A DNA stretch of 63,514 nt, filler included, from Chiloscyllium plagiosum (Eukaryota): assembly GCF_004010195.1 (NCBI RefSeq). It is 12 parts of 12 records of this genome, joined end to end, with 100 filler letters (N's around TTAATTAATTAA, not from the genome) between each part and the next. Parts side by side here need not be neighbours in the genome. Positions count along the whole stretch, not along the records: positions 62,463 to 63,514 come from NW_025120907.1; 11 more parts are not named here. The stretch is one strand, 5' to 3'. Shown here piece after piece: positions 3,956 through 63,450 of the stretch. Below the pieces are notes generated by a model. The model did no database searches. It had not been told where the DNA came from and was given only the letters and a program-made list of their open reading frames with translations. Both the position numbers and the translations under genes were made by a program. The first letter of the stretch is position 1, and each line of letters begins with the position of its first letter.

Positions 3956-6170
3956 CGAACCAACACCATTAACCCCCACACTGGGCTCCCTGTACATGAC
4001 CCACTCCATTAACCCTCACACTGGGCTCTCTGTACATGACCCGCTCCATTAACCCCCACACTGGGCTCTCAGTACATGATCCACTCCATTAACCCTCACA
4101 CTGGGCTCTCAGTACATGACCCGCTCCATTAACCCTTACACTGGGCTCTCTGTACATGACCCACTCCATTAACCCCCACACTGGGCTCTCTGTACATGAC
4201 CCACTCCATTAACCCCCACACTGGGCTCTCAGTACATGACCCGCTCCATTAACCCCCACACTAGGCTCTCAGGACATGACCCGCTCCATTAACCCCCACA
4301 CTGGGCTCTCAGTACATGACCCGCTCCATTAACTCCCACACTGGGCTCTCTGTACATGACCAACTCCATTAACCCCCACACTGGGCTCTCTGTACATGAC
4401 CCACTCCATTAAACCACACACTGGGCTCTCGTACATGACTCACTCCATTAACACCCCACACTGGGCTCTCTGTACATGACACAGTCCATTAACCCCCACA
4501 CTGGGCTCCCTGTACATGACCCACGCCATTAACCCCAACACTGGGCTCCCTGTACATGACCCAGTCCATTAACCCCCACACTGGGCTCTCTCTACATGAC
4601 CCACCCCATTAACCCTCACACTGGGCTCTCTGCACATGACCCAGTCCATTAACACCCACACTGGGCTCTCTGTACATGACCCACTCCATTAACCCCCACT
4701 CTGGGCTCTCTGTACATGACCCACTCCATTAGCCCCCACACTGGGTTCCTTGTACATGACCCACTCCATTAGCCCCCACACTGGGCTATCTGTACATGAC
4801 CCATTCCATTAACCCCCACACTGGGCTCCCTGTACATGACCCACTCCATTAACCCCCAGTCTGGGCTCTCTGTACATGACCCACTCCATTAACCCCCACA
4901 CTGGGTTCCTTGTACATGACCCACTCCATTAACCCCCACACTGGGCTCACTGTACATGACCCGCTCCATTCACCCCCACACTGGGCTCTCTGTACATGAC
5001 CCACTCCATTAACCCTCACACTGGGTTCCCTGTACATGACTCACTCCATTAACCCCACACTGGGCTCTCTTTACATGACCCACTCCATTAACCCTCACAC
5101 TGGGTTCCCTGTACATGACCCACTCCATTAACCCCCACACTGGGCTCTCTGTACATGACCCACTTCATTAACCCCCACACTGGGTTCCCTGTACATGACC
5201 CACTCCATTAACCCTCACACTGGGCTCCCTCTACATGACCCACTCCACTAACTCCCACACTGGGCTCCCTGTACATGACTCACTCCATTAACCCTCACAC
5301 TGGGCTCTCTGTACATGACCCAATCCATTAACCCCGACACTGGGCTCTCGTACATGACCCACTCCATTAACCCCCACACTGGGCTCTCTGTACATGACCC
5401 ACTTCATTAACCCCCACACTGGGCTCTCTGGACATGACCCACTCCATTAAACCCCATACTGGGTTCCCTGTATATGACTCGCTCCATTAATACCCATACT
5501 GGGCTGTCTGTACATGACCAACTCCATTAACCCACACACTGGGCTTCATGCACATGACCCAATCCAGGGACCCCCACACTGGGCTCTGTATATGGGACCA
5601 ACTCCATTAGCCCCCACACTGGACTCCCTGTACATGACACACTCCATTAACCCCCACACTGGGCTCCCTGTATATGACCCATTGTATTAACACCCACATG
5701 GGGCACTCTGTACATGACCCACTCCATGAACGCCCACACTGGGCTCCCTCTACATGACCCACTCCATCAACCTACACGCTGGCTCCCTGTACATGACCCA
5801 CCCCATTAACCCCCACACTGGGTTCCTGTACATGACCCACTCCATGAACCCTCACACTGGGCTCCCTCTACATGACCCACTCCACTAACTCCCACACTGG
5901 GCTCCCTGTACATGACTCACTCCATTAACCCCCACACTGGGCTCTCGTACATGACCCACTCCATTAACCCCCACACTGGGCTCCCTGTACATGACCCACT
6001 CCATTAACCCCCATACTGGGCTCCTAGTACATGACCCATCCCATTAACCTCCACACTGGGCTCCCTGTACATGACCCACTCCATTAACCCCCACACTGGG
6101 CTCTCGTACATGACCCACTCCATTAACCCCCACACTGGGCTCCCTGTACATGACCCACTCCATTAACCCC

Positions 6171-9100
6171 ACACTGGGCTCTCGTACATGACCCACTCCA
6201 TTAACCCCCACACTGGGCTCTCGTACATGACCCACTCCATTAACCCCCACACTGGGCTCTCGTACATGACCCACTCCATTAACCCCCACACTGGGCTCTC
6301 GTACATGACCCACTCCATTAACCCCCACACTGGGCTCTCGTACATGACCCACTCCATTAACCCCCACACTGGGCTCTCGTACATGACCCACTCCATTAAC
6401 CCCCACACTGGGCTCTCGTACATGACCCACTCCATTAACCCCCACACTGGGCTCTCGTACATGACCCACTCCATTAACCCCCACACTGGGCTCTCGTACA
6501 TGACCCACTCCATTAACCCCCACACTGGGCTCTCGTACATGACCCACTCCATTAACCCCCACACTGGGCTCTCGTACATGACCCACTCCATTAACCCCCA
6601 CACTGGGCTCTCGTACATGACCCACTCCATTAACCCCCACACTGGGCTCTCGTACATGACCCACTCCATTAACCCCCACACTGGGCTCTCGTACATGACC
6701 CACTCCATTAACCCCCACACTGGGCTCTCGTACATGACCCACTCCATTAACCCCCACACTGGGCTCTCGTACATGACCCACTCCATTAACCCCCACACTG
6801 GGCTCTCGTACATGACCCACTCCATTAACCCCCACACTGGGCTCTCGTACATGACCCACTCCATTAACCCCCACACTGGGCTCTCGTACATGACCCACTC
6901 CATTAACCCCCACACTGGGCTCTCGTACATGACCCACTCCATTAACCCCCACACTGGGCTCTCGTACATGACCCACTCCATTAACCCCCACACTGGGCTC
7001 TCGTACATGACCCACTCCATTAACCCCCACACTGGGCTCTCGTACATGACCCACTCCATTAACCCCCACACTGGGCTCTCGTACATGACCCACTCCATTA
7101 ACCCCCACACTGGGCTCTCGTACATGACCCACTCCATTAACCCCCACACTGGGCTCTCGTACATGACCCACTCCATTAACCCCCACACTGGGCTCTCGTA
7201 CATGACCCACTCCATTAACCCCCACACTGGGCTCTCGTACATGACCCACTCCATTAACCCCCACACTGGGCTCTCGTACATGACCCACTCCATTAACCCC
7301 CACACTGGGCTCTCGTACATGACCCACTCCATTAACCCCCACACTGGGCTCTCGTACATGACCCACTCCATTAACCCCCACACTGGGCTCTCGTACATGA
7401 CCCACTCCATTAACCCCCACACTGGGCTCTCGTACATGACCCACTCCATTAACCCCCACACTGGGCTCTCGTACATGACCCACTCCATTAACCCCCACAC
7501 TGGGCTCTCGTACATGACCCACTCCATTAACCCCCACACTGGGCTCTCGTACATGACCCACTCCATTAACCCCCACACTGGGCTCTCGTACATGACCCAC
7601 TCCATTAACCCCCACACTGGGCTCTCGTACATGACCCACTCCATTAACCCCCACACTGGGCTCTCGTACATGACCCACTCCATTAACCCCCACACTGGGC
7701 TCTCGTACATGACCCACTCCATTAACCCCCACACTGGGCTCTCGTACATGACCCACTCCATTAACCCCCACACTGGGCTCTCGTACATGACCCACTCCAT
7801 TAACCCCCACACTGGGCTCTCGTACATGACCCACTCCATTAACCCCCACACTGGGCTCTCGTACATGACCCACTCCATTAACCCCCACACTGGGCTCTCG
7901 TACATGACCCACTCCATTAACCCCCACACTGGGCTCTCGTACATGACCCACTCCATTAACCCCCACACTGGGCTCTCGTACATGACCCACTCCATTAACC
8001 CCCACACTGGGCTCTCGTACATGACCCACTCCATTAACCCCCACACTGGGCTCTCGTACATGACCCACTCCATTAACCCCCACACTGGGCTCTCGTACAT
8101 GACCCACTCCATTAACCCCCACACTGGGCTCTCGTACATGACCCACTCCATTAACCCCCACACTGGGCTCTCGTACATGACCCACTCCATTAACCCCCAC
8201 ACTGGGCTCTCGTACATGACCCACTCCATTAACCCCCACACTGGGCTCTCGTACATGACCCACTCCATTAACCCCCACACTGGGCTCTCGTACATGACCC
8301 ACTCCATTAACCCCCACACTGGGCTCTCGTACATGACCCACTCCATTAACCCCCACACTGGGCTCTCGTACATGACCCACTCCATTAACCCCCACACTGG
8401 GCTCTCGTACATGACCCACTCCATTAACCCCCACACTGGGCTCTCGTACATGACCCACTCCATTAACCCCCACACTGGGCTCTCGTACATGACCCACTCC
8501 ATTAACCCCCACACTGGGCTCTCGTACATGACCCACTCCATTAACCCCCACACTGGGCTCTCGTACATGACCCACTCCATTAACCCCCACACTGGGCTCT
8601 CGTACATGACCCACTCCATTAACCCCCACACTGGGCTCTCGTACATGACCCACTCCATTAACCCCCACACTGGGCTCTCGTACATGACCCACTCCATTAA
8701 CCCCCACACTGGGCTCTCGTACATGACCCACTCCATTAACCCCCACACTGGGCTCTCGTACATGACCCACTCCATTAACCCCCACACTGGGCTCTCGTAC
8801 ATGACCCACTCCATTAACCCCCACACTGGGCTCTCGTACATGACCCACTCCATTAACCCCCACACTGGGCTCTCGTACATGACCCACTCCATTAACCCCC
8901 ACACTGGGCTCTCGTACATGACCCACTCCATTAACCCCCACACTGGGCTCTCGTACATGACCCACTCCATTAACCCCCACACTGGGCTCTCGTACATGAC
9001 CCACTCCATTAACCCCCACACTGGGCTCTCGTACATGACCCACTCCATTAACCCCCACACTGGGCTCTCGTACATGACCCACTCCATTAACCCCCACACT

Positions 9101-9997
9101 GGGCTCTCGTACATGACCCACTCCATTAACCCCCACACTGGGCTCTCGTACATGACCCACTCCATTAACCCCCACACTGGGCTCTCGTACATGACCCACT
9201 CCATTAACCCCCACACTGGGCTCTCGTACATGACCCACTCCATTAACCCCCACACTGGGCTCTCGTACATGACCCACTCCATTAACCCCCACACTGGGCT
9301 CTCGTACATGACCCACTCCATTAACCCCCACACTGGGCTCTCGTACATGACCCACTCCATTAACCCCCACACTGGGCTCTCGTACATGACCCACTCCATT
9401 AACCCCCACACTGGGCTCTCGTACATGACCCACTCCATTAACCCCCACACTGGGCTCTCGTACATGACCCACTCCATTAACCCCCACACTGGGCTCTCGT
9501 ACATGACCCACTCCATTAACCCCCACACTGGGCTCTCGTACATGACCCACTCCATTAACCCCCACACTGGGCTCTCGTACATGACCCACTCCATTAACCC
9601 CCACACTGGGCTCTCGTACATGACCCACTCCATTAACCCCCACACTGGGCTCTCGTACATGACCCACTCCATTAACCCCCACACTGGGCTCTCGTACATG
9701 ACCCACTCCATTAACCCCCACACTGGGCTCTCGTACATGACCCACTCCATTAACCCCCACACTGGGCTCTCGTACATGACCCACTCCATTAACCCCCACA
9801 CTGGGCTCTCGTACATGACCCACTCCATTAACCCCCACACTGGGCTCTCGTACATGACCCACTCCATTAACCCCCACACTGGGCTCTCGTACATGACCCA
9901 CTCCATTAACCCCCACACTGGGCTCTCGTACATGACCCACTCCATTAACCCCCACACTGGGCTCTCGTACATGACCCACTCCATTAACCCCCACACT
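6171..9997. repeat. Perfect 39-bp tandem core (~98 copies) CACACTGGGCTCTCGTACATGACCCACTCCATTAACCCC
   Basis: The 13-aa periodic ORFs in three frames reflect a 39-bp unit, the 1-nt deletion variant (CTCTCGTA vs CTCTCTGTA) of the 40-bp unit. Confidence 0.97.
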
Positions 9998-11482
9998 GTA
10001 CGCTCCCTGCACATGACCCACCACATTAACCCCCACAATGGGCTCCCTGTACATGACTCACTCCATTAACCCTCACACTGGGCTCCCTTTACATGACCAA
10101 CTCCATTAACACCAACACTGGGCTCCCTGTACATGACCCACTCAATTAACCCTCACATGGGCTCTGTGTCCATGACCAACTCCATTAACCCCACAATTGG
10201 CTGTCTATACATGACCCACTCCATTAACCTCCATACTGGGCTCCCAGTACATGACCCATCCCATTAACCCCCACACTGTGCTCACTGTACATGACCCACT
10301 CCATAAACTCCACACTGTGCTCTCTGTACGTGACCCACTCTATTAACCCTCACACTGGAGTCTCTGTTCATGACCCACTCCAATAGCCCCCACACTGGGC
10401 TCTCTGTTTGTGACCCACTCCATTAGCCCTCACACTGGCCTCCCAGTACATGACTCACCCCATTAACCCCCACAATTGGCCCTGTATACATGACCCACTC
10501 CATTAACCCCCACACTGGGCTCTCTGTACGTGACCCACTCTATTAACCCTCACACTGGGCTCTCTGTACATGACCCACTCCATTAGCCCTCACACTGGCC
10601 TCCCAGTGCATGACCCACTCCATTAACCCTCACACTGGGCTCTCTGTACATGACCCACTCCATTAACCACTACACTGGGCTCTCTGTACATGACCCACTC
10701 CATTAACCCCCACACTGGGCTCTCTGTACATGACCCACTCCATTAACCCCTACACTGGGCTCTCTGTACATGACCCACTCCATTAACCCCCACACTGGGC
10801 TCTCTGTACATGACCAACTCCATTAACCCCCACACTGTGCCCCCTATACATGATCCATCCCATTAACCCCCACACAGGGCTCCCTTTCCATGACTCACCA
10901 CATTAACCCCCCCACACAGGGCTCCCTTTCCATGACTCACCACATTAACCCCCACACTGGGCTCTCTGTACATGACCTACTCCATTAACCCCTACACTGG
11001 GCTCTCTGTACATGACCCACTCCATTAACCCTCACACTGGGCTCTCTGTACGTGACCCACTCTATTAACCCTCACACTGGGCTCTCTGTACATGACCCAC
11101 TCCATTAGCCCTCACACTGGCCTCCCAGTGCATGACCCACTCGATTAACCCCCACACTGGGTTCTCTGTATATGACACAGTCCATTAACCCTCACACTGG
11201 GCTCTCTGTACATGACCCACTCCATTAACCCCCATACTGGGCTCCCAGTACATGACCCACTCCATTAACCCTCACACTGGGCTCTCTGTACATGACCCAC
11301 TCCATTAACCCCCACACTGGGCTCTCGTACATGACCCCATCCCATTAACCCGCACACTGGGCTCTCTGTACATGACCCACTCCATTAACCCCCACACTGG
11401 GCTCTCTGTACATGACCCACTCCATTAGCCCTCACACTGGCCTCCCAGTGCATGCACTGGGCTCTCTGTACATGACCCCTCC

Positions 11483-11608
11483 ATTCCTGAAGAATGGCTC
11501 ATGCCCAAAGCGACGATTCTCCTGTTCCTTGGATGCTGCCTGACCTGCTGCGCTTTTCCAGCAACACATTTTCAGCTCTGATCTCCAGCATCTGCAGTCC
11601 TCACTTTC
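11483..11608 (+). mobile_element. Penelope-like terminal repeat fragment (degenerate hammerhead motif) inserted in minisatellite
   Basis: ATTCCTGAAGAATGGCTCATGCCCAAAGCGACGATTCTCC...CAGTCCTCACTTTC; CTCCATT present on both sides; near-identical to copies at 12810 and 13299. Confidence 0.65.
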
Positions 11609-12809
11609 CACTCCATTAACCCTCACACTGGGCTCCCTGCACATGACCCACCCCATTAACCCTCATACTGGGCTCCCTGTACATGACTCACTCCATTAAC
11701 CCTCACACTGGGCTCCCTGTACATAACCCATCACATTAACTCTCACACTGGGCAACACATTTTTAAGCTCACCCCATTAACCCCCACACTGGGCTCCCTT
11801 TACATGACCAACTCCATTAACACCAATGCTGGGCTCCCTGTACATGACCCACTCAATTAACCCTCACATGGGCTCTGTGTACATGACCAACTCCATTAAC
11901 CCCACAATTGGCTGTCTATACATGACCCACTCCATTAACCTCCACACTGGGCTCCCTGTACATGACTCACCACAATAAACCCCCATACTGGGCTCCCAGT
12001 ACATGACCCATCCCTTTAACCCCCACACTGTGCTCTCTGTATATGACCCACTCCATATACTCCACACTGTGCTCTCTGTACGTGACCCACTCTATTAACC
12101 CTCACACTGGGCTCTCTGTACATGACCTACTCCATTAACCCCCACACTGGGCTCTCTGTACGTGACCCACTCTATTAACCCTCACACTGGGCTCTCTGTA
12201 CATGACCCACTCCATTAGCCCTCACACTGGCCTCCCAGTGCATGACCTACTCCATTAACCTCACACTGGTCTCCCTCTACATGACCCACTCGATTAACCC
12301 CCACACTGGGTTCTCTGTACATGACACAGTCAATTAACCCTCACTGGGCTCTCTGTACATGACCTACTCCATTAACCCCCACACTGGGCTCTCTGTACAT
12401 GACCCACTCCTTTAACCCCCATACTGGGCTCCCAGTACATGACCCATCCCATTAACCCCCACACTGGGCTCTCTGTACATGACCTACTCCATTAACCCCC
12501 ACACTGGGCTCTCTGTACATGACCCACTCCTTTAACCCCCATACTGGGCTCCCAGTACATGACCCATCCCATTAACCCCCACACAGTGCTCTCTGTACAT
12601 GACCCACTCCATTAACCCTCACACTGGGCTCCCTGTACATGACCCACTCCAGTGATCCCCACGCTGGGCTCCCTGTACATGACTCACCCCATTAACCCTC
12701 ACACTGGGCGTTGTGTACATGACCCACTCCATTAACCCTCACACTGGGCTCCCTGTACATAACCCATCACATTAACTCTCACACTGGGCTCTCTGTACAT
12801 GACCCCTCC

Positions 12810-12935
12810 ATTCCTGAAGAATGGCTCATGCCCAAAACGTCGATTCTCCTGTTCCTTGGATGCTGCCTGACCTGCTGCGCTTTTCCAGCAACACATTTTC
12901 AGCTCTGATCTCCTGCATCTGCAGTCCTCACTTTC
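12810..12935 (+). mobile_element. Penelope-like terminal repeat fragment in minisatellite (copy 2)
   Basis: Same element and same junctions as 11483-11608. Confidence 0.65.
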
Positions 12936-13298
12936 CACTCCATTAACCCTCACACTACGCTCCCTGCACATGACCCACCCCATTAACCCCCACAATGGGC
13001 TCCCTGCACATGACCCACCCCATTAACCCCACAATGGGCTCCCTGAACATGACCCACCCCATTAACCCTCACACTGGGCCCTCTGTACATGACCAACTCC
13101 ATTAACACCAACGCTGGGCTCTCTGTACATGACCCACTCCATTAACCCCCACACTGGGCACCCTGCACATGACCCACCCCATTAACCCCACAATGGGCTC
13201 CCTGAACATGACCCACCCCATTAACCCTCACACTGGGCTCCCTGTACATAACCCATCACATTAACTCTCACACTGGGCTCTCTGTACATGACCCCTCC

Positions 13299-13424
13299 AT
13301 TCCTGAAGAATGGCTCATGCCCAAAACGTCGATTCTCCTGTTCCTTGGATGCTGCCTGACCTGCTGCGCTTTTCCAGCAACACATTTTCAGCTCTGATCT
13401 CCTGCATCTGCAGTCCTCACTTTC
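13299..13424 (+). mobile_element. Penelope-like terminal repeat fragment in minisatellite (copy 3)
   Basis: Matches copy 2, 489 bp downstream (identical 87-aa ORFs at 12732 and 13221). Confidence 0.65.
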
Positions 13425-14834
13425 CACTCCATTAACCCTCACACTACGCTCCCTGCACATGACCCACCCCATTAACCCCCACAATGGGCTCCCTGCACAT
13501 GACCCACCCCATTAACCCCCACGCTGGGCTCCCTGAACATGACCCACCCCATTAACCCTCACACTGGGCCCTCTGTACATGACCAACTCCATTAACACCA
13601 ACGCTGGGCTCTCTGTACATGACCCACTCCATTAACCCCCACACTGGGCACCCTGCACATGACCCACCCCATTAACCCCCACAATGGGCTCCCTGAACAT
13701 GACCCACCCCATTAACCCTCACACTGGGCTCCCTGTACATGACTCACTCCATTAACCCTCACACTGGGCTCCCTTTACATGACCAATTCCATTAACACCA
13801 ACGCTGGGCTCCCTGTACATGACTCACTCCATTAACCCTCACACTGGGATTCCTCTACATGACCCACTCCATTAACCCCCACATTGGGCTCCCTGTACAT
13901 GACTCTCCCCAATAAACCCCCATACTGGGCTCCCAGTACATGACCCATCCCATTAACCCCCACACTGTGCTCTCTGTACATGACCCACTCCATAAACTCC
14001 ACACTGTGCTCTCTGTATGTGACCCACTCTATTAACCCTCACACTGGACTCTCTGTTCATGACCCACTCCAATAGCCCCCACACGGGGCTCTCTGTTTGT
14101 GACCCACTCCATTAGCCCTCACACTGGCCTCCCAGCACATGACTCACCCCATTAACCCCCACAATGGGCCCTGTGTACATGACCCACTCCATTAACCCCC
14201 ACACTGGGCTCTCCATAAATGACCCACTCCATTAACCACCACAGTGTACTCTCTGTACATGACCCACTCCATTAACCCTCAAACTGGGCTCCCTGTACAT
14301 GTCCAACTCCATTAACCCCCACATTGGGCTCCCTGTAGATGACCCACTCCATGAACCCCTACACTGGGCTCTCTGTACATGACCCACCCCATTAACCCCC
14401 ACACTGGCCTCTCTGTACATGACCCACTCCATTAACCCCCACACTGGACTCTCTGTACATGAGCCACTCAATTAACCCCCACACTGGCTCCCTGTACATG
14501 ACCCACTCCATTTACCGTCACACTGGGCTTCCTTTACATGACTCACTCCATTAACCCTCACACTGGGCTCCCTCTACATGACCCACTCCATTAACCCCAC
14601 GCTGGGCTCCCTGTACATGACTCACTCCATTAACCCTCACACTGGGATTCCTCTACATGACCCACTCCATTAACCCCACGCTGGGCTCCCTGTACATGAC
14701 TCACTCCATTAACCCTCACACTGGGCCCCCTCTACATGACCCACTCCATTAACCCCCTCCCTGGGCTTTCTGTACATGACCCACTGCATTAACCCTCACA
14801 GTGGGCTCTCTGTACATGACTCACTGCATTAACT

Positions 14835-20903: not shown

Positions 20904-21017
20904 ATGCTGGATTCGTCTGTTCCATGTTCTGATCTAACCTCACTGATCTGTGAAACCATTCTCCCATTCCATTCAGTGTCTGTCTATTATTTGTGTTTTC
21001 ACCCTTTCCCATCACAG

Positions 21018-21296
21018 TTCAGCCTGAAGTGTTCATCTCCAGGAGGGAGCCCAATGGTCAGGACAAGCCGCTCACTCTCTCCTGCCTGGTCACTGGGTTT
21101 TATCCTGTAGACATCGAGGTGACCTGGCTAAGGAATGGAGAGGTCATGTCTGAGACCCAATCCTCGGGGGTACGACCGAACCACGATGGGACCCATCAGA
21201 TCCAGAAAGAGATTGAGATCAATGCTGGGGATGAGGATCAATACTCCTGTCAGATTGAACACAGCAGCCTGGCAGAGGGCAAGCTCTATCAGTGGG
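21018..21296 (+). pseudogene. MHC class I alpha3 (Ig C1-set) exon, open frame, part of a disrupted gene
   Basis: VQPEVFISRREPNGQDKPLTLSCLVTGFYPVDIEVTWLRNGE...RPNHDGTHQ...YSCQIEHSSL...QW; phase-1 AG and GT boundaries; 279 bp. Confidence 0.92.
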
Positions 21297-22468
21297 GTAA
21301 GGGACAGGGCGCAAGGTTTGTGTGTCTGTGTCTGCCCTTGTGGCCGTGTCTGTATGTGGCTGCACTCAGCCCTGGTTAATCACCTGAATGAACTGATATT
21401 TTTCTGATGTAATCAGAGTATTCAGCATTAATAAAAACTGAGTATATTCAATATTAACTACAAGAGGAAATCGGGAAGCAACACATATGATAAGAGTTTA
21501 GAAATAAGATGAAAATTTTAAAAGAAGGTAGATCAACCTCTGAATTGTTCACAAATAATGAAAATTTGAACATCGTGGCCATTGTAGTGTATGTTACAAG
21601 TAAGCGTTAGTTGAGAGTCAATTTTGAGATTCTTGGCTGTGTCGGTTGAATGGAACCCTATCGTCCTGATTTATTTCAGCATTGCCTGACTCCCTCCAAT
21701 TTCATACAATCTTCTTATTGTCAATAATTATCTGGTGTGGAACCTTATCAATGAACTTCTGGAAATCCATATGGACCAGATCCAAAGACAACCTGTTAAA
21801 CACCATGTCAGTCAGCTCCTCAGCAAATTCAGTGAGGTTGGTCAGACATGAGCCCCCCTTCACCAATCCATCTGTTTCATCAGCTGATTGGTCAGTTAGA
21901 ACTGTACCGCACAGGTGTGGAATTAATGATCTTGATTGACCCCTGGCAGTTTGAACAGGAACAGGGAGCCATCCTCTCCAGCAAACACTCAGGCACATTC
22001 ATTTCTGCCGATCGATTCTCCTCACCTTCTCTATCCATGAGGGACTGACTCTGTCCTTGATCATCTCCCATTCTTTATCTCTCAGAAACACTTCCGACAG
22101 AGATTTCTATTCCCTGTTCACACTGCCTCCTGGATCCACACTGCCCATTCCGTAATCCTGGTTAAGATCGATTTCCCATTCCCAGCTTTTCTATATGAAT
22201 AGACACTGAGACCCAGTGGGATGACAGGAGTTGTCCAACAAGCTGCTCATTCCTGGAGAATCTTAACCATCCAACCAGGTGCCCACTTGATCACAAACCT
22301 GACCTTCCTCAGTGCATCACAACTTTCCAAATATCTTCTTCAGGAAAAGGAGAGGGAACAGAAGAACTTGCCCTGTGTCCATAACTCATGGCATTCCAGT
22401 GTGGAGTCTGACTATGGGACTGGGAACACCGGACAGACGAGGGGGAGTTTCTGAATCAATTCTCTGAC

Positions 22469-24402: not shown

Positions 24403-24441
24403 TGTTTTTGAACGGTTCCAGCCCTGGTTCCTCTCGCTGTC
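24403..24441 (-). other. Degenerate 23-spacer RSS of VH (GACAGCG-23-TCAAAAACA)
   Basis: Directly follows YYCARD; spacer counted as 23; heptamer lacks the initial C of CAC. Confidence 0.85.
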
Positions 24442-24746
24442 GTCTCTTGCACAGTAATAGATGGCGGTGTCTTCGATCTTCAGGTTCTCCATGTCCAACC
24501 CGAAAATGTTGTTTGAAGTGTCTTTGGACGCAGTAAATCGACCCTTAATCGCTGGTGCATAGTTACTGCTGGATGAACTATAGTGCCAAAGCAGCCACTC
24601 CAGACCCTGTCCGGGAACCTGTCGGACCCAGTGCATGGTGTAGCTGCTAAGATCGAACCCGCTGGTTTTACACGTCAGTTTCAGGCTGCCTGCGGGACGG
24701 CCAGTCTCTGCCTCTGGCTGGGTCAAAACAACCTCCGACTGGACAC
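24442..24746 (-). CDS. IGHV: IgM-type heavy chain V exon, unrearranged, open frame
   Basis: [47 protein letters not shown]...[20 protein letters not shown]...[10 protein letters not shown]; AG acceptor; typical shark IgM VH framework. Confidence 0.95.
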
Positions 24747-24873
24747 CTTTAAAAAGAAAACAAATAAACCATGAGCATTAACGCTGATGAAGTGATGGCT
24801 GAGTCTTTTACATTCCTGCCGTAGACTAACATTGAGACAGTCACAAAGAGAGACTTGAACAACAAACACTCAC

Positions 24874-24922
24874 ATGATAATAAAGTCAGCAACAAACTGA
24901 GAAAAATTGTCGACACAATCAT
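24874..24922 (-). CDS. IGHV: VH leader exon MIVSTIFLSLLLTLLS(C)
   Basis: ATG, hydrophobic peptide, 49 bp, GTGAGT donor, phase 1. Confidence 0.92.
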
Positions 24923-38958: not shown

Positions 38959-39350
38959 TTATTGACATGAATTAACAGTGTCCATCAGTGCAAGCGAAAT
39001 GTTTACAAAACTCGGTTTACCGCTAGATTTATTGACTGTTCTGTTGATGATCTTCAACGGAATCACTTCAAGTCCCACCACACAGGAGTAAGAAGCACTG
39101 CTGGCCCAGTCTTCCGCTGTAATGGATAACAGGCTGGACATGAAGAAGGAGGTGATGTCGCTCTCCGCTATTACCTCGGTGTTCTTGTAGTTACTGGGAT
39201 TTACAGGCTCGCCATTGTTTGTCCACTTGACGAAGATCCCTCGGGAGGAGAAACCTCTCACTAAACAGGTGAGGGAGAGAACCCTTTCAGTGGAGATTTC
39301 TTCTGTTGTTGGCAGGAGCACAGACACTGATGGCTCCCATGGATTGATCA
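38959..39350 (-). CDS. IGHM: IgM Cmu4 plus secretory tail exon
   Basis: [14 protein letters not shown]...[17 protein letters not shown]...YSCVVGLE...[23 protein letters not shown]; tail has NIS glycosylation site and penultimate Cys; AATAAA at 38918-38923. The usual VGHE His is Leu here. Confidence 0.92.
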
Positions 39351-39808
39351 CTGCAAAATATTTGAGACAAATATAAATCAACTATAAAAATCCAGAATCA
39401 ATATCGCGATTTCACTAAATATTAAAATATGCCATTTTTAATTTGGGATTTATTCACTTTCATTTTCTAAAAGGAGCAGAATGGTATCCATGATGTTCAG
39501 TAAAAGATGTTAAAAGTTTAATGTGAAAGTCGCCTCCATGTTTCCAGCCCACAACAAGGACATTCTGGCCATTTGTCATTGCTGATGGTGACTTCACACC
39601 CCAGGCTTCTACCCACCTTATCTGACTTAACCAGAATAGAATATCCTTTGGTCTGTCTCTTTCTGAATCAGCTACTTACCTATCCTGCCATCAGACGCAT
39701 CATTAATGCTCCCAACGGTGTTTGCTCATTACCAATCAAAGCCTGCCATTGGTGTAACTGGATCTGGATCATACATGGGATCCTTTGTGTTTTAATCTCA
39801 CCGCTCAC

Positions 39809-40111
39809 CTTTCTCCTTGTGGATGGAGTCTCTCAGCGGAGTCGGTAGATTCTGTGGTACACATTCAAAAGTAACGCCACTCAGCCAGGCTTCAGTAGAA
39901 ACGTCTAATTTGATGAACACGCTGTCGGGATTCTGTCCAGGCTGGTCAGCAATTTCTAATTTCAGAGGCTTCTTTTCTTCTATCCAGGTGACGCTGACTA
40001 CAGAAGGAAGATTGGACACAATGCAGGTTAACGTCACCATCGCCTCCACTAAGACCTGTTCTCCTGGCGGCGGGAGGATTTTAACTGTGTAATCATGGCA
40101 CACAGTATCTC
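39809..40111 (-). CDS. IGHM: IgM Cmu3 exon with an in-frame 6-nt deletion
   Basis: [27 protein letters not shown]...W...[20 protein letters not shown]; paralogues read FECVVYHQ; AG/GT intact; 458-bp intron to Cmu4. Confidence 0.9.
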
Positions 40112-42598: not shown

Positions 42599-42969
42599 CT
42601 ATTTAAAGTTGTGTCTCCTCTGTGGACTGTCTTGAACACTGTACACACATTCTGATCTCCTGATGCTCTTGCTGAGGGTAAAGGGGAGGGTCACGTGGGT
42701 GAGGGCACAGGAGAAGCGAGCGTTGGACTCCCAGTCAGACCCAGAGAGGTTCAGCAGGCTGCTGACACTGTAGGTGCTGTCCGAAGTTCTCAGGTTGTTG
42801 CTGGTCTGAACCCCGTCCGAAATGACTGCACCATCCTTCTTCCACTGCACCTCCAGCTCATCAGGATAGAAGTGATTGGCAAGGCACACCAGGGTGGCAG
42901 TGCCCTTGGCATTGACCTGCTCCGGGGAGGGGGGCAGCAGGGTCAGCTTGGGCTGAGAGTTCTCACGGC
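42599..42969 (-). CDS. IGKC: Ig kappa (NS4/type III) C exon with stop-loss extension
   Basis: RENSQPKLTLLPPSPEQVNAKGTATLVCLANHFYPDELEVQWKKDG...FSCALTH...SECV then TAC instead of TAG, adding YSVQDSPQRRHNFK; AATAAA at 42109-42114. Confidence 0.9.
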
Positions 42970-43539
42970 CTGAAAGACAAGAGAAACAATTTTAATCCCT
43001 GCCTTTCGAAGGGATTTTAACTCTCTGAACATTCACTGGCAAAACAATCCATTTGAACATGTGTAGCCAATAGCTAACAAACCCCATAAATAAACAGACA
43101 TTGTTCAAATTGCTTTTTAGGATGTGGGTGTCACTGATAGGATCAGCATTTATTGCCCATCCCTAATTACCCAGAGGGCAGTTTCGAGTCAACCACATTG
43201 CTGTGGGTCTGGAGTCACATGGTAAGGATGGCAGTTTCCTTCCCTAAAGGACATCAGGGAATCAGATGGCTTTTTCCTGACAATCGACAGTTGTTTCATG
43301 GTCATCATTAGACTCTTAATTACAGATTTTTACAATTGAATTCACATTCCACCATCTAACCCTGGCCCCCAGAACATTAATCTGGATATCTGGATGAACA
43401 GCTCAGCAAGAGTACCATTAAATCATCACCTCCTTTATCTTATTTTTAGCTGAGAGTGAAAGCAAGAAGTTTGTTTCTGAACAGGGTGATTAGAAAAAGC
43501 ACAACTGAAAGACTCCCAGTTCCTCCCAAAAAAGATTGG

Positions 43540-45290: not shown

Positions 45291-45618
45291 TCAGTCTGAG
45301 CTTGGTTCCTTTATCGAACATAAGAGTAGCTGTTATACTACATACAGTAATAGTCAGCGACATCCTCATTCTGAACGTTGCTGATTGTCAGGGTGAAACT
45401 GGTCCCATATCCTCTGCCAGTGAATCGCTCGGAGACTCCTGTGTTTCGAGTTGTTGCATCATAGATCAGGAGAGAGGGTTTCTGTCCTTCTCGCTGCTGG
45501 TACCAGTTAACCCACTTGCTCACAGATTGACTGGCCGTACAGGTATTGGTTGCGATCTGGCCCAGTTCCACTGACAGCACCGGGGGTGACTGGGTCATGG
45601 TGATGTCCCCACTGATAC
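45291..45618 (-). pseudogene. IGKV: Pre-joined Vk-Jk exon, non-functional
   Basis: [13 protein letters not shown]...[13 protein letters not shown] fused with no RSS to out-of-frame MFDKGTKLRL and a GTAAGT donor. Confidence 0.93.
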
Positions 45619-45804
45619 CTGAGGGGTCAGAGAGAAACACAGTGAAGTCAGAACTGTCACAGAAAGAGCCTGTCAAATGAGAGATTGTTGGAGACACTGA
45701 GCTTTCCTCTGGTTTCAGCATTTTCCCTTCAATCACAAGTCAGTGGAATTGGAGTGAAATGGAGAGCAGCTAAAGATTCAAGGTGGAAGGAGAGAGATTT
45801 GTAC

Positions 45805-46786: not shown

Positions 46787-47073
46787 AAGATACCGAGTGC
46801 CATACCAACACCGTTAAAATCCTCCCACCGCCAGTAGAGCACGTCTTACTGGAGGCGACGGTGACGTTAACCTGCGTTCTGCCCAATCTTCCTTCTGGAG
46901 TCAACGTGACCTGGAAACAAGAAAAGAAGCCTCTGAAATCAGAGATTGCTGAGCAGCCTGGACAGAATCCCGACAGCGTGATCAGCAAATTAGACATTTC
47001 GACTGAAGCCTGGCTGAGTGGCGTTACTTTTGAATGTGTGGTGTATCATCAGAATCTACAGACTCCGCTGAGA
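46787..47073 (+). CDS. IGHM: IgM Cmu3 exon, truncated by gap
   Basis: [36 protein letters not shown]...[15 protein letters not shown]. Confidence 0.9.
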
Positions 47074-47567
47074 NNNNNNNNNNNNNNNNNNNNNNNNNNN
47101 NNNNNNNNNNNNNNNNNTTAATTAATTAANNNNNNNNNNNNNNNNNNNNNNNNNNNNNNNNNNNNNNNNNNNNGAGCTTCCAGTGCAGAGGCTGTACAAA
47201 AACCTCAGCTCTGTGCTTCCCTCTGTCATTCTCACCCTCTCCCTATCTCCCAGTCTGTTGATCACTCCCACCCTTTTTTTGTGTCTTTCTGTCTCTGCCT
47301 CTGGGTTGTGAACTTTATTTTTCGTTGTTAAATCTTGCAGCTGTTCTTCCCATGTGGCCATGGAGTGGAAGAGGGAAATTTGAGGCCTTCAGTGAGCGTT
47401 GAGACACCACAGGGACTGAAGTGTGTAGCAGACAGTGACCATCCCAGCATGGGGTAATTTGTTCAGTTTCATTTGTATCTAACTGTGGGATATGTCAGTT
47501 CAGGCGGTGGGACTGTGTGTCCATTATTATGCATTTTATATAACTGTGGATGCGTCAGTACAGGAGG

Positions 47568-47595
47568 TGATTTTGTATTGCTCTGTATCACTGTG
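47568..47595 (-). other. 12-spacer RSS of Vk (CACAGTG-12-ACAAAATCA)
   Basis: Consensus heptamer; counted 12-bp spacer; nonamer 7/9. A V with a 12-RSS is the kappa configuration. Confidence 0.93.
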
Positions 47596-47893
47596 TAGGG
47601 GGAGCTGCTATGCTGCATACAGTAATAGTCAGCGACATCCTCATTCTGAACGTTGCTGATTTTCAGGGTGAAACTGGTCCCTGATCCACTGCCAGTGAAT
47701 CGATTGGAGACTCCTGTGAATCGAGTTGTTGCATCATAGATCAGGAGAGAGGGTTTCTGACCTTCTCGCTGCTGGAACCATTTAACCCACTTGCTAACAG
47801 ATTGACTGGCCGTACAGGTGATGGTTGCGGTCTGGCCCAGTCCGACTGACAGCAACGGGGGAGACTGGGTCATGGTGATGTCCCCACTGATAC
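47596..47893 (-). CDS. IGKV: Ig kappa V exon, unrearranged, intact
   Basis: [53 protein letters not shown]...[35 protein letters not shown]. Confidence 0.95.
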
Positions 47894-48078
47894 CTGAGGG
47901 GTCAGACAGAAACACAGTGAAGTCAGAACTGTCACAGAAAGAGCCTGTCAAATGAGAGATTGTTGGAGACACTTAGCATTCCTCTGGTTTCAGCATTTTC
48001 CCTTCAATCACAAGTCAGTGGAATTGGAGTGAAATGGAGAGCAGCTAAAGATCGAGGTGGAAGGAGAGAGATTTGTAC

Positions 48079-50330: not shown

Positions 50331-50659
50331 CTACACACATTCTGATTTCCTGATGCTCTTGCTGAGGGGAGAGGTGAGGGTCATGTGGGTGAGGGCACAG
50401 GAGAAGCGAGCGTTGGACTCCCAGTCAGACCCAGAGAGGGTCAGCAGGCTGCTGACACTGTAGGTGCTGTCCGAAGCTCGCAGGTAGTTGCTGGTCTGAA
50501 CCCCGTCCGAAATGACTGCACCGTCCTTCTTCCACTGCACCTCCAGCTCATCGGGATAGAAGTGATTGGCAAGGCACACCAGATTGGCAGTGCCCTTGGC
50601 ATTGACCTGCTCCGGGGAGGGGGGCAGCAGGGTCAGCTTGGGCTGAGTATTCTTACGGC
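50331..50659 (-). CDS. IGKC: Ig kappa C exon, intact
   Basis: RKNTQPKLTLLPPSPEQV...CLANHFYP...W...FSCALTHMTLTSPLSKSIRKSECV*; AG acceptor; AATAAA downstream near 50021. Confidence 0.93.
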
Positions 50660-51891
50660 CTGAAAGACAAGAGAAGCAATTTGAATCCCTGCCTTTTGAA
50701 GGGATTTTAACTCTCTGAACATGAACTGGCAAAACAGTCCATTTTGAACATTTGTATTCAATACCTAACAAACCCCATAAAAGAACAGACATTGTTTAAA
50801 GTGCATCTTGGGATGTGGGTGTCACTGGTAGTGCCAGCATTTATTGCCCATCCCTAATTGCCTCTGAGAAGGTGATGGTGAAAGAGAAGGGACAGTCTTG
50901 GACCATCGTTTATGGAATGAATGTGGGCAGCTGGAAGGGCTATCAATGGGGGAGCATTTCAGTGACAGTGATCAGAACTCAGTGAGATTGAGAGGAGGGA
51001 TGAAAATGGAGAACCATGGGGCAAGTGTAAAAGTTTTCATTTGGGAACAAACCATTTTACTGAACTGGGCAGCGATTGGGTAAAAGTGAGCTGAAAGACA
51101 AAATGCAGGGGTGAAATTAAGCAGAACCTGAGGAAAGCAAAGAGCTGACAGGATGAGATGTGTCCAAACGAAGTGAAGGAAATCCCAGTGATGTTTATAA
51201 TCACAGAAAGAACAAGAAGAGAATGAGGGAATGTAGGAGGCCCATTCGAGAGCAGGAAGGGAACTTGTGTGCGGTGGTGCAAGATGGAGCAATGGTTCCT
51301 CATGAAATCTTTCGGTCGGTTTTCACAAAAGAGAGGGACAAAGCAGAAACTGTAGTTCAGAAGGAGGAGGACTGTGCAACATTGGAACGGCATCTTTCAC
51401 ATCTGAAAGACTCCTAGTTCATCCAAAGAAACGGAAGATTCATGCTGTCCCAAAGACATTTGCAGACAGTGTGGGACTTGTTTGAAATGAGGTCACTGAA
51501 GGAATGCAGGAAATGTGGAAGCCAGATTGTACACAGCAAGATCCCACAAGCAACAATGAACCAAGGAACATTTTGAGTGATGGTTGTTCAGGGAAAAATA
51601 TCAGCCTGAAATACGATTCAAAGAGAAAATAACTGGAACAGTTGGATGAAAAATGAGAAAATGAAAGTTAAAGGAGAAGGGAGGATTGCTGGTTCATGAT
51701 GGGATTGATTGTTATCAGGAAATAAAAGGATGGGACAGAATATTGTGAATGTCATATTGTACTGAGGAAACTTAAAAGTGCAGGGAAGCTCAATTACAGA
51801 CCAAACATAAAGGCTTTGTCTCTTAATGCATGACCCATTCAGAATAATGTAGACAAAGCTTTACCACACAAACCAAGGTAAATCAAGCTTC

Positions 51892-52140: not shown

Positions 52141-53977
52141 TTTAATAATCGAAACAGCCAGAAGACTGGGAAGGGATCCACAGGCTTTGGCTTATAAAGG
52201 TTTGAAAATAATGTGTTTTCATGAATTTTCTGGGGCCATAATTAAGAAAAGAAAGCTATTCTATTGTTAGCTATTCTATTGTTCTGATTTGCTGGGTGAG
52301 NNNNNNNNNNNNNNNNNNNNNNNNNNNNNNNNNNNNNNNNNNNNTTAATTAATTAANNNNNNNNNNNNNNNNNNNNNNNNNNNNNNNNNNNNNNNNNNNN
52401 CCTCACTCCCATCAAAACCTGACTTTATTCTGAGATCAGTTTCTATTCTTCATTATAAAGTACCCCCACCAGTTTCAGACTAGACATTTCACACCCAGCC
52501 CCCATTTCCTCACACTGGAATCAAGAACCAAATTTGCCCCATCTCAGGATTGCCCTCTGAATGTGGTGTCAGTGTGTTAATGTTGTGTTTGAATGAAAGA
52601 GCCACGGTGGAATCTGGGACTGAATCCAAGGGGTTTCTGAGCCACCAGCAGCCTCCCCGCTGTGTGAGGGTCTGTTTGGATAAGATTTCAGCCCCATGGG
52701 TTCCTACTGATACTGAGTCATGGAGTGAGATTGCTGGAGCCACATGTGGATTGAAGAACACAACAGTCAGGACAATGAGCTGCTCTGGAATCCACCCTGA
52801 GCCCTGGATGGTTGTCACTGAGATGGCCCAGGAGCTACAGAATATGACAGCAGAAAGTGGAACCAGTTCATCACTGACTGTCCTCCCCAGCCGTGACTCC
52901 TAGACTTCCCCGGACTGAACATTCTCAATCTGACCCCAAGGACACACGGGACAATTTCATCTCATTTGAAGAGGAAAGAAAACCCAGATCTAATTTATGG
53001 AATATTTATTTCCCAAACTGTTATTGTGCAATTGTTATTCTGAGTAACAAGGTCCTGCTTGTCATATTCATCAATATAGGGTTCCCAAACAGTTGATTTG
53101 AATTTCTTGGCTTGTGATCTTGCTGTGCCTAAGGGATTGGTGAGCGTTGATGGGGAATTTCCATCACATTATTGTGTTCCCCATTGTCCCCTCCTGCCTT
53201 CCATCTTTTCCCCATTTATTGGGAAAGATTTCCTTGGGGTTGTGCATTCCTGCTGAAAGTGCCCCTTGTGGACACAACGGTAGCATTGCCCTCCTGCTCC
53301 GGGGACCCCATTGCCCCCTCTATTCTCCCCCTCTTTCTCCAGGTCATGATGATGGAGGTTAACACTTCACACAGCTTTCCCTGAGGCTTCAGCTCTGGCC
53401 ATTTCCAAAGCACACACGAGACAGAGACTGAATCATCTTCATCTTTATTCCCTTTTCCAGATTGACATTGACAGAAAACAGACTGCAATTAACAGCCCAG
53501 ACAGAGGAAGCTGCACAAATTCACAGCCACAATGGAGCTTGAGGAAAATACTTGTGGAGATTTTCTCAATAACCTAAGCATCCTGTCCCTTTAAACAGTG
53601 ACAAAACCTTAAATTGGAACTGACGGCTGAGCACGAAGTAGGTCTGTATTACTGAAGCAGAGACTTCTGAGGTTCACATTGATTTTGTACAGCTGACAGT
53701 CTTCAGCATTTTCAACAGGTTTGATTTGGCATTACAGGTCACCACTGCCCCAAACAAACACTCCCAGAACAGGGTCAGCATGGAGTCTGATACAGAGTAA
53801 AGCTTCTTTTTGAAGATCGCAATGACCTGCCTTAACTCTTGAACATCAGAAGTGTCTCTGAGCCAGTTCCAAGAAGGAAGAGAGTTGAAATTCAGTGCTG
53901 ACAACGACCTTTGTCCTGCCAGCTCAGCCCTGTTCTATTTAACGTTGTGTCTCCTCTGTGGACTGTCTCAAACATTC

Positions 53978-54297
53978 TACACATATTCTGATCTCCTGAT
54001 GCTCTTGCTGAGGGGAGAGTCACGTGGGTGAGGGCACAGGAGAAGCGAGCGTTGGACTCCCAGTCAGACCCAGAGAGGGTCAGCAGGCTGCTGACACTGT
54101 AGGTACTGTCCGAAGCTCGCAGGTAGTTGCTGGTCTGAACCCCATTCGAAATGACTGCACCATCCTTCTTCCACTGCACCTCCAGCTCATCGGGATAAAA
54201 GTGATTGGCAAGGCACACTAGGGTGGCAGTGCTCTTGGCATTGACCTGCTCCGGGGAGGGGACAGCAGCTTTAGCTTGGGCTGTGAGTTCTCACGGC
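53978..54297 (-). pseudogene. IGKC: Ig kappa C exon pseudogene
   Basis: 1-nt deletion near LLPPS, 7-nt deletion near TLP..LSK, and terminal Cys TGT>TAT relative to the paralogues. Confidence 0.88.
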
Positions 54298-55885: not shown

Positions 55886-56781
55886 GTTTTCTGACGGAGA
55901 TAACTATGAGAAGGAGACAGTCAGTGCATGACTGAGGGTGTTGTACTAGATGCATCGAGTATATGAAACAAGGTAAATGAGCCTGTAGTGCAGGGACATG
56001 GCTGCAAGGGGATCAGGGCTGGGAACTAAATATCGAAGGATGTACATCCTATTGAAAGGAAATGTGAGGGGNNNNNNNNNNNNNNNNNNNNNNNNNNNNN
56101 NNNNNNNNNNNNNNNTTAATTAATTAANNNNNNNNNNNNNNNNNNNNNNNNNNNNNNNNNNNNNNNNNNNNAACACAGCCCACGAGGAACAATGACATAA
56201 ATTGGAGAATGACATTACACCAATAACGCAAAGTATTTTTAATCATGTTAAATATAATGAACAGAATTTCCATGGCTGTTCACTGCTTCTGTCACACTTT
56301 AGAACTCTGCAAAGAGAATAATTATTATTTATTATAATCTGTCCAAAATTTGGGATTTGATTTGGCAGTCAGTGTGACCAGCAGCACTTGCACCTAAAGG
56401 TTATGAACATGGAAATGAACTCATTATATTCAGATTACTCTTGTCACAAGTATCAATGGATGGTCTTAAGTGAGAGACAAACTCTGAAAGAAAGGTCATT
56501 CCATGGGTTACATGATGGTATCTTTGATGATTTTACTTTTTTCACAGGTTTCACTTGTTACAAAGCCAGTGTTCTTTCGGAATAATTGCACAGGGTATGT
56601 TATAGGTAATCACAAATGTTTCACAGATCAAAATACATCAACAATAGTAAGCATCGTTTCAGCATAGTTGGAGTTGCCATTTTGAAGGTGGTGTCTTCAC
56701 CCTGTGAAGGAAGTAATCTGAAGATTGGCTGTTTGTATCAGAAATGGGCATTTTTCATTGACTATGATTTTTGTTTCATAG

Positions 56782-57090
56782 AAGATACCGAGTGCCACCC
56801 TAACACCGTTAAAATCCTCCCACCACCAGTAGAACAAGTCTTACTGGAGGCGACGGTGACGTTAACCTGCGTTGTGTCCAATCTTCCTTCTGGAGTCAAT
56901 GTGACCTGGAAACAAGAAAAGAAGCCTCTGAAATCAGAGATTGCTGAGCAGCCTGGACAGAATCCCGACAGCGTGATCAGCAAATTAGACATTTCTACTG
57001 AAGCCTGGCTGAGTGGCGTTACTTTTGAATGTGTGGTGTACCATCAGAATCTACCGACTCCGCTGAGAGACTCCATCCACAAGGAAAAAG
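56782..57090 (+). CDS. IGHM: IgM Cmu3 exon, intact
   Basis: [43 protein letters not shown]...[22 protein letters not shown]; AG/GT boundaries. Confidence 0.92.
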
Positions 57091-62362: not shown

Positions 62363-62527
62363 NNNNNNNNNNNNNNNNNNNNNNNNNNNNNNNNNNNNNN
62401 NNNNNNTTAATTAATTAANNNNNNNNNNNNNNNNNNNNNNNNNNNNNNNNNNNNNNNNNNNNTTCAGAAATTAGTCACATGAATGGAAAGTTTTTTTAAA
62501 AGTCACAAAAAAGGTTAAAGTTCTCAC

Positions 62528-62575
62528 CTGAAGTCACTGTCACCATGGTCCCTTGGCCCCAGTCATCAAGATAGA
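62528..62575 (-). CDS. IGHJ: IgH J segment YLDDWGQGTMVTVTS
   Basis: WGxG motif; GTGAGA donor; preceded by a 23-RSS. Confidence 0.95.
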
Positions 62576-62614
62576 CACAATGTTACGTTATCTACACTGG
62601 GCCACACAATAAGT
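62576..62614 (-). other. 23-spacer RSS of JH (ACTTATTGT-23-CATTGTG)
   Basis: Counted 23-bp spacer; heptamer 6/7, nonamer 6/9. Confidence 0.85.
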
Positions 62615-62924
62615 AGCTCTGCATAAAACAAACCAAAAATCTACCATTAAAATTTCGGAGCCACAGGCAAAATAAAGTCACGATAAATCTTCATCACATG
62701 TGCGAGTGAATTCTGAACATTCTTGATAAATTGAAGTGTATTGTTTTATACTTCACAGAGTTACACTTGAGCTGATTCTCAAAATCACCAATTGGTGTAT
62801 CAATAATTATCACCACTTTTACAAATTAAACATGCACAAAAACCCACAGAACTAATACTGCACTGCAAGTTAAGACGGTTTGTAGAATTAATCACTGACT
62901 TGTTTCAAACAATAGGGGCTGAAA

Positions 62925-62952
62925 GGTTTTTGTATCGATCATAATTGCAGTG
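62925..62952 (-). other. 12-spacer RSS 3' of fused V-D-D (CACTGCA-12-ACAAAAACC)
   Basis: Perfect nonamer; counted 12-bp spacer; CAC retained. Confidence 0.88.
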
Positions 62953-63274
62953 TGAATCCAGCTCCCCACTGCTCTTGCACAGTAATAGATTGCGGTGTCT
63001 TTGATCTTCAGGTTTTTCATGTTCAACGCAAAAATGTTGCTTGAAATCTCTTTGGACGCAGTAAATCGGCCCATAATCGCTGGTGCATAGCTATTGTCGG
63101 ATGAACGATAGTAGTACAGCAGCCATTCCAGGCCCTTGCCGGGAACTTGTCGGACCCAGTGCATGTAGTTGCTGCCAAGATTGAACCCGCTGGTTTTACA
63201 GGTCAGTCGCAGACTGCCAGCGGGACGTCCAGTCTCTGCTTCTGGCTGAGTCAAAACAACCTCCGACTGGACAC
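62953..63274 (-). CDS. IGHV: IgM-type VH exon already fused to D sequence (V-D-D), open frame
   Basis: [39 protein letters not shown]...[15 protein letters not shown]; no V 23-RSS; ends in a 12-RSS. Confidence 0.93.
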
Positions 63275-63401
63275 CTTTAAAAAGAAAACAAATAAACATT
63301 GAGCATTAATGCTGATGAAATGATCGCCGAGTATTTGACATTTCTGTGGTAGACGAACGTTGAGACAGTAACAAAGAAAGACTTGAACAAAAAACACTCA
63401 C

Positions 63402-63450
63402 ATGATAAGAAAGTCAGTAACAAACTGAGAAAAATTGTCGATACAATCAT
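63402..63450 (-). CDS. IGHV: VH leader exon MIVSTIFLSLLLTFLS(C)
   Basis: 49 bp, GTGAGT donor, nearly identical to 24874-24922. Confidence 0.92.

Follow-up and report, generated by a model that had tools for sequence, protein, structure and literature searches.

The locus at positions 62528..63450 of the window (the whole stretch analyzed, 63,514 nucleotides) has a heavy-chain V segment already fused to D sequence and a J segment still apart from it, and raises the question of whether this configuration is inherited or somatic, and whether it is put to use. Clusters of this VDD-J kind have been known for about 35 years, and the primary report of germline partly joined IgM clusters, in horn shark and little skate, is reportedly that of Kokubu et al. 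(1988). The case bears on the old question of whether such clusters ever go on to be completed and put to use, or whether they are accidents of germ-cell RAG activity that have been inherited. According to PMC2193153 and PMC2193156, germline VDD-J, VDJ, and related clusters are a significant fraction of the horn shark and little skate IgH miniloci, and germline-joined IgH clusters also appear in the reviews PMC4279169 and PMC5192425 (papers given by PMC number are represented here by parts of their text, except for PMC7677710, represented by its main text). The first-pass annotation had noted germline VDD-J genes in some elasmobranchs, and the descriptions from horn shark and skate bear this out. 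We consider that the window gene is probably an IgM-type gene with V, D1, and D2 joined and J unjoined, very likely inherited, likely the product of RAG acting in a germ cell, with one join left and likely little used; it would add a bamboo shark case to the known germline VDD-J IgM clusters.

Organization of the partly joined locus

The locus lies on the minus strand and runs from a leader exon through an intron, VH, a 19-nt junction, a 12-RSS, 310 bp, and a 23-RSS to JH. Comparisons were made with proteins, among them P0001 (Chiloscyllium punctatum chiPu_0018910, GCC20352.1; 91% identical to the window gene), and with reads, the evidence coming from 4 of 24 runs (X1, X11, X19, and X21), for which tissues are not on record and in which the DNA evidence is that of organism B. 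The features are as follows.

63402..63450, minus: leader exon with its ATG at 63450, from sequence; matches elasmobranch IgM leaders in P0002, P0006, and P0007
63275..63401, minus: leader intron, 127 nt, GT-AG, from sequence
62972..63274, minus: IgM-type VH exon with an open frame, its 3' end 2 nt shorter than unjoined V ends through trimming; Pfam V-set
62965..62971, minus: D1-like core CAGTGGG, abutting V with no added bases, from sequence; assignment to D1 putative
62962..62964, minus: GAG, three bases separating the D1-like part from the D2-like part, from sequence; N addition or later substitutions
62953..62961, minus: 3' part of D2, CTGGATTCA, adjoining the RSS; assigned by position against the 12-RSS, with an ACTGG core in 3 of 7 listed X1 inserts
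62925..62952, minus: 12-RSS, CACTGCA, 12 nt, ACAAAAACC; from scan and pattern search, read-through peptide the same in P0001
62615..62924, minus: D2-J interval, 310 bp, nonamer to nonamer; related intervals in X1 and X11 contigs
62576..62614, minus: J 23-RSS, nonamer ACTTATTGT, 23 nt, heptamer CATTGTG, from sequence
62528..62575, minus: JH encoding YLDDWGQGTMVTVTS, GT donor at 62527, from sequence; Asp in place of the Tyr of other clusters (place 62564)

The arrangement described in the first-pass annotation, a VH running straight into a 12-RSS about 310 bp from a JH with a 23-RSS, is confirmed at these positions. Its statement that leader, frame, and splice sites are intact around a CDR3 core of CARAVGSWI also holds: leader and V form an open reading frame up to the junction, the junction translates as CARAVGSWI, and the GT-AG intron and the GT donor are in place. 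Contigs of X1 and X19 and one X21 read skip 127 nt at the leader intron, though they may derive from other clusters. Only 64 bp of the window lie upstream of the ATG and only 65 bp of the locus contig follow J, and the promoter and constant region are therefore out of reach.

The VH domain matches Pfam V-set (E=4e-16) and is 69-72% identical to named shark IgM/IgH V sequences. The nearest named proteins (20 matches among 50 candidates) are C. punctatum V genes, followed by catshark, horn shark, and whale shark IgH V; a PDB search gave generic antibody VH matches only. Both V and J are of IgM type by sequence comparison, and the genome appears to be bamboo-shark-like. The designation of the locus as an IgM cluster stands as far as V and J carry it, the locus contig having no C-mu exon before its end. 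A related J in X19 splices to a C-mu1-like exon, as judged by eye from a loose contig end.

The 12-RSS has a perfect nonamer and a heptamer, CACTGCA, that departs from the consensus at three of seven positions. It was missed by a strict RSS scan, which limits total mismatches, and was found by a looser scan and by pattern search: CAC-N16-ACAAAAACC has a single match in the whole window, with 0.03 expected and matches in 3 of 100 shuffles. The J heptamer is CATTGTG, and nearly all read contigs compared, organism B's included, have the consensus G at 62580; several further private changes are present in the J region. Some mammalian J segments have CATTGTG as a functional heptamer, and literature motif searches for heptamer variants returned nothing on sharks. 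Both the D2 12-RSS and the J 23-RSS are kept, in deletional orientation and with non-consensus bases in each, and are predicted to be able to join. The 12/23 rule (PMC2193153) is the basis for predicting one remaining join, in which RAG would pair the 12-RSS and 23-RSS in a B cell and delete the ~377 bp between coding ends. The resulting CDR3 would open with an invariant AVGS(W), and all of its variation would come from the D2-J joint; among trimmed D2-J joins without added bases, 39 of 117 are open and in frame.

Usage of the locus

The RNA-like run X1 is the sole deep one of its kind and acts as lymphoid RNA, with the leader intron skipped at a depth of 6254 and at least 7 V-J joints bearing different inserts; its library and tissue are not on record. 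The window junction is in none of the 7 listed X1 V-J joints, all of which leave V at 62972-62974, and the Asp codon of the window J is in none of the 12 listed X1 contigs at 62564, all of which read Tyr; contigs drop rare forms. X1 also contains a 154-bp piece that matches the window V exactly (depth 216) and, at a depth of 92, a D-J piece differing at 2 of 171 letters, and the locus may accordingly be transcribed, or these pieces may be unspliced transcripts, sterile transcripts, or DNA. Single-cell RNA run X21, of which about 2/100 was covered (31 reads), is too shallow to bear on expression. Its one read over 62954 has another letter and, judged from bin depths, seems to span 62924-62961, which would make it the D2 and RSS of another cluster.

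Taken together with other features of the locus, it is quite probable that the cluster has little or no use today. The drifted J heptamer and the frameshift in the nearest C-mu2 would count toward this, and joined H-chain genes of the horn shark were not found expressed in the work described in the available part of PMC2193156. The same germline VDD-J gene could instead be a working, selected locus for a semi-invariant IgM heavy chain, probably of early life, for which a single RAG join in place of three would be the advantage; we regard this as unlikely. The intact frame, splice sites, and both signals would count against little use, as would an excess of changes in CDR1 and CDR2, where 5 of the 10 V differences from P0001 fall within 16 of 97 positions (P=0.01, post hoc), a pattern like that of V genes under diversifying selection. 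Against a working locus stand the X1 results, with none of the 7 listed joints and none of the 12 listed contigs at the J marker coming from the window gene, and the fact that no intact C-mu is linked. The open frame has a rough chance of 0.47 under neutrality and is therefore no sign of selection at this distance, and V has diverged from X11 (16/247) no less than the piece covering D-J and the junction (11/204).

A more specific form, in which a bamboo-shark lineage has kept AVGSW fixed across a species split, diversified CDR2, and left one RAG join to produce an early-life semi-invariant IgM, is slightly less probable still. If this were the true reading, no earlier partly joined IgM gene would have been shown both to undergo somatic completion and to be maintained by selection, and the gene would be in a shark bred in the laboratory. 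The usage question has good handles, in that the junction is a unique tag present in at least two organisms and the J carries a private Asp. On the preferred reading of an inherited, little-used gene, the cluster would add little or nothing to the present repertoire, which is the less supported part of that reading.

Composition and probable inheritance of the junction

Positions 62984-62953 read, on the minus strand, TACTGTGCAAGAG-CAGTGGG-GAG-CTGGATTCA. The V segment can be aligned with an unjoined paralogue (24442-24922) as far as 62972, which leaves it 2 nt shorter than the unjoined V end as taken from that paralogue and from loose ends of read contigs. Unjoined V segments end in GCA AGA GAC and the joined V retains AGAG, so that 2 nt have been trimmed. 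The V coding end is fused to D sequence, the V 23-RSS and the V-D and D-D intervals are gone, and no heptamer or nonamer remnant is found within the 19-nt junction. End trimming and clean loss of the RSS are described in PMC2193156 as RAG hallmarks of germline-joined nurse shark light chains.

CAGTGGG follows directly after V, with zero bases added at the V-D1 joint; the rough chance of this 7-nt D1 match is 0.002. Among the 7 listed X1 V-J inserts, compared by eye, ACTGG is present in three, GTGGG preceded by A or G in two, and TACTACAGT in one; these motifs fit D2 and D1 cores, and similar D motifs are counted in the horn shark IgH paper PMC2191167, as represented in a search listing. CTGGATTCA is attributed to D2 because of its place against the 12-RSS, and it shares only CTGG with the D2 cores of the X1 inserts. 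The intervening GAG could be TdT additions or two substitutions in the D1 and D2 ends, and two substitutions are plausible because V is 13% diverged from the unjoined paralogue and about that many are expected. The resemblance to D1 and D2 cores proposed at first pass is thus backed by like motifs in the somatic joints of X1 and, for D2, by position, with D1 putative. The proposal of a RAG/TdT-type junction is supported for RAG by the trimming and the absence of RSS remnants, and weakened for TdT, with no base added at V-D1 and GAG explicable by two substitutions.

It is very unlikely that V was joined in the germline to D2 alone (VD-J), or that a non-RAG deletion made the junction, with the likeness to D1 arising by chance. 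The 12/23 rule would allow a direct join of the V 23-RSS to the D2 12-RSS, the D1 match is only 7 nt long, the D2 part has only CTGG in common with the D2 cores of X1 inserts, and the comparison uses somatic inserts, not germline D sequences; set against these are a break 2 nt inside the V end, a D2 flush with its RSS, and the absence of RSS remnants, features that RAG coding joints share (PMC2193156), and the low rough chance of the 7-mer. Under the preferred VDD-J reading, two deletional RAG joins (V 23-RSS to D1 12-RSS, and D1 23-RSS to D2 12-RSS) would have taken place in the germline of an ancestor before the lineages split, and the product would have been inherited since.

The window gene and P0001 differ at none of the six junction residues AVGSWI and at 12 of 127 residues overall. 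The peptide read through the 12-RSS is common to the window gene and this C. punctatum gene model, and the tree places their V domains as sisters (94/86, not starred). Junction or read-through words occur, among 80 proteins, only in P0001, and a region search of proteins gave P0001 as its one candidate; the protein sets are poor in shark cDNAs. In organism B, record 11 of X11 (putatively DNA) spans 204 bp (62803-63006) at a depth of 16.1, similar to other X11 single pieces (16-24), with 11 other letters and 0 gaps, its comparison with the junction being by span, mismatch count, and gap count. X11 record 12 also crosses the junction, with ~15 letters on the V side, and is excluded from the counts. 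The unusual Asp in the J of the window gene is retained in X11 record 9, and organism A has a piece 100% identical to the window V. X11 and P0001 may represent one species.

Recurrence in a second organism is not expected of a clonal junction, and we therefore hold a germline origin to be very likely; from the sequences compared, the junction is very likely older than a species split. The first-pass proposal of a junction fixed in the genome with one 12/23 join left is supported, through the peptide shared with P0001 and the ungapped DNA contig of organism B. A somatic two-step (2R) intermediate, brought into the assembly with lymphocyte DNA, has next to no probability: nurse shark thymocytes commonly carry VDD-J intermediates, which are also present in B cells (PMC2435157), the contig is a short one in a fragmented stretch, and 0 of 24 listed runs contain half of its words (20 contain a part), but clonal junctions are private, yet the same six residues are in P0001 and, in the other organism's DNA, the site is spanned by a contig with no gaps and an unremarkable depth. 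Somatic B-cell origin, which the first-pass annotation had named as the case that would overturn it, is already largely refuted by the P0001 junction and X11 record 11.

Like the VDD-J and VD-J clusters of horn shark and skate, the window gene has V and both D segments fused in the germline, keeps the D2 12-RSS and the J 23-RSS, and occurs beside unjoined clusters; unlike them, it is from a different shark order and has a junction traceable in two lineages, which provides a relative age. Nurse shark and bamboo sharks belong to the same order. For nurse shark, canonical germline-joined IgM is absent according to the available part of the review PMC5192425. Nurse shark IgM1gj (P0066, PMC4279169) is likewise a germline-joined heavy-chain V of IgM type, but it is a complete VDJ, lacks C-mu2, is a major neonatal product, and has another CDR3, whereas the window J is unjoined. 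Its V is 53% identical to the window V, and P0066 is not grouped with the window V in the tree, where deep branches are weak. The germline-joined NS4 light-chain genes of nurse shark resemble the window gene in having a RAG-type coding joint with trimming and clean RSS loss, and differ in being light-chain genes with complete VJ; their joints are stable once established, the youngest being less than 7 Myr old (PMC2193156). In nurse shark lymphocytes, somatic 2R VDD-J intermediates (PMC2435157) have a DNA layout identical to that of the window gene, but are clonal and limited to tissues, whereas the window junction is common to organisms.

Partial germline joining in Chiloscyllium immunoglobulins is also described for the bamboo shark IgNAR2, 5, and 6, whose pre-joined D segments differ from the window gene in being IgNAR and in being joined D to D only (PMC8692893). 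In the available part of that paper, 37 IgM clusters are counted in bamboo shark, with no description of whether these are joined, and pre-joined D segments are reported for IgNAR alone. The main text of PMC7677710 has no occurrence of IgM or joined, and the part of PMC12227049 available adds nothing on joined IgM. No description of joined IgM in bamboo sharks was found in the literature searched, and subscription papers or supplements may have one.

Paralogue, constant exons, and neighboring sequences

The paralogue at 24442-24922 shares 87% identity with the window gene across 543 bp and parts from it precisely at the V end, where its V signal reads GACAGCG-23-TCAAAAACA. It was first described as a close paralogue ending in a V 23-RSS; the closeness is one of sequence, the two V genes being on different contigs, and the signal is 23-spaced with a heptamer that has lost its first C.

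24403-24442, minus: V 23-RSS of the paralogue, heptamer GACAGCG instead of CACAGCG; the V itself is open

Related unjoined V ends in read contigs and reads have CACAGCG, and P0002 reads through its V end as RDHSE. An RSS heptamer requires CAC, and with its first C lost the paralogue's signal is therefore probably dead; by sequence, the paralogue is probably unable to rearrange. Its D and J segments lie beyond a linker.

The window contains 11 artificial 100-bp linkers and two plain gaps. The region 38400-62460 consists of short contigs separated by 100-bp linkers and is rich in immunoglobulin pieces, whose order and orientation are untrustworthy. Searches with shark IgM chains (tblastn) identified a C-mu2, three C-mu3, and one C-mu4 exon in the window, and no C-mu1. 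Three C1-set exons at 46.8, 56.8, and 40 kb had been considered as IgNAR, which was ruled out, as tblastn identifies them as C-mu3.

59385-59076, minus: C-mu2 exon, frameshifted close to the 5' end, 62% identical to Triakis IgM (tblastn)
56781-57086, plus: C-mu3 (tblastn)
46798-47073, plus: C-mu3 (tblastn)
39774-40100, minus: C-mu3 (tblastn)
38962-39345, minus: C-mu4
45341-45739, minus: light-chain V
47472-47972, minus: light-chain V, with a 12-RSS at 47595
42602-42991, 50334-50795, and 53895-54290, minus: light-chain C

The nearest C-mu2 is 3.1 kb from J, across a linker, and is a candidate member of the cluster. The C. punctatum model P0047 has a frameshift in C-mu2 too, at a different place. 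Elsewhere in the window, a Pfam C1-set exon at 20954-21376 (plus strand) resembles, by eye, an MHC class I alpha-3 domain, and an 11-kb tandem satellite at 3959-14833, with a period near 39-40 bp, contains several RSS-like matches.

Other joined or shortened arrangements were encountered among the reads and proteins. X11 record 10, on 62603-63283, contains a distant V (47 differences in 308) with 66 letters from the D2-J interval, in organism B DNA at a depth of 24, and is possibly another germline-joined or D-deleted cluster. X19 record 16, on 62539-63076 at a depth of 167, has V, 80 letters, and then a J RSS and J, and would be either a germline cluster lacking D or a sterile transcript that has undergone splicing. 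In P0005 (whale shark) and P0053 (C. punctatum), V runs straight into J with D-like residues between, P0005 also continuing past the J donor, and these may represent genes with a complete VDJ join or artefacts of the gene models.
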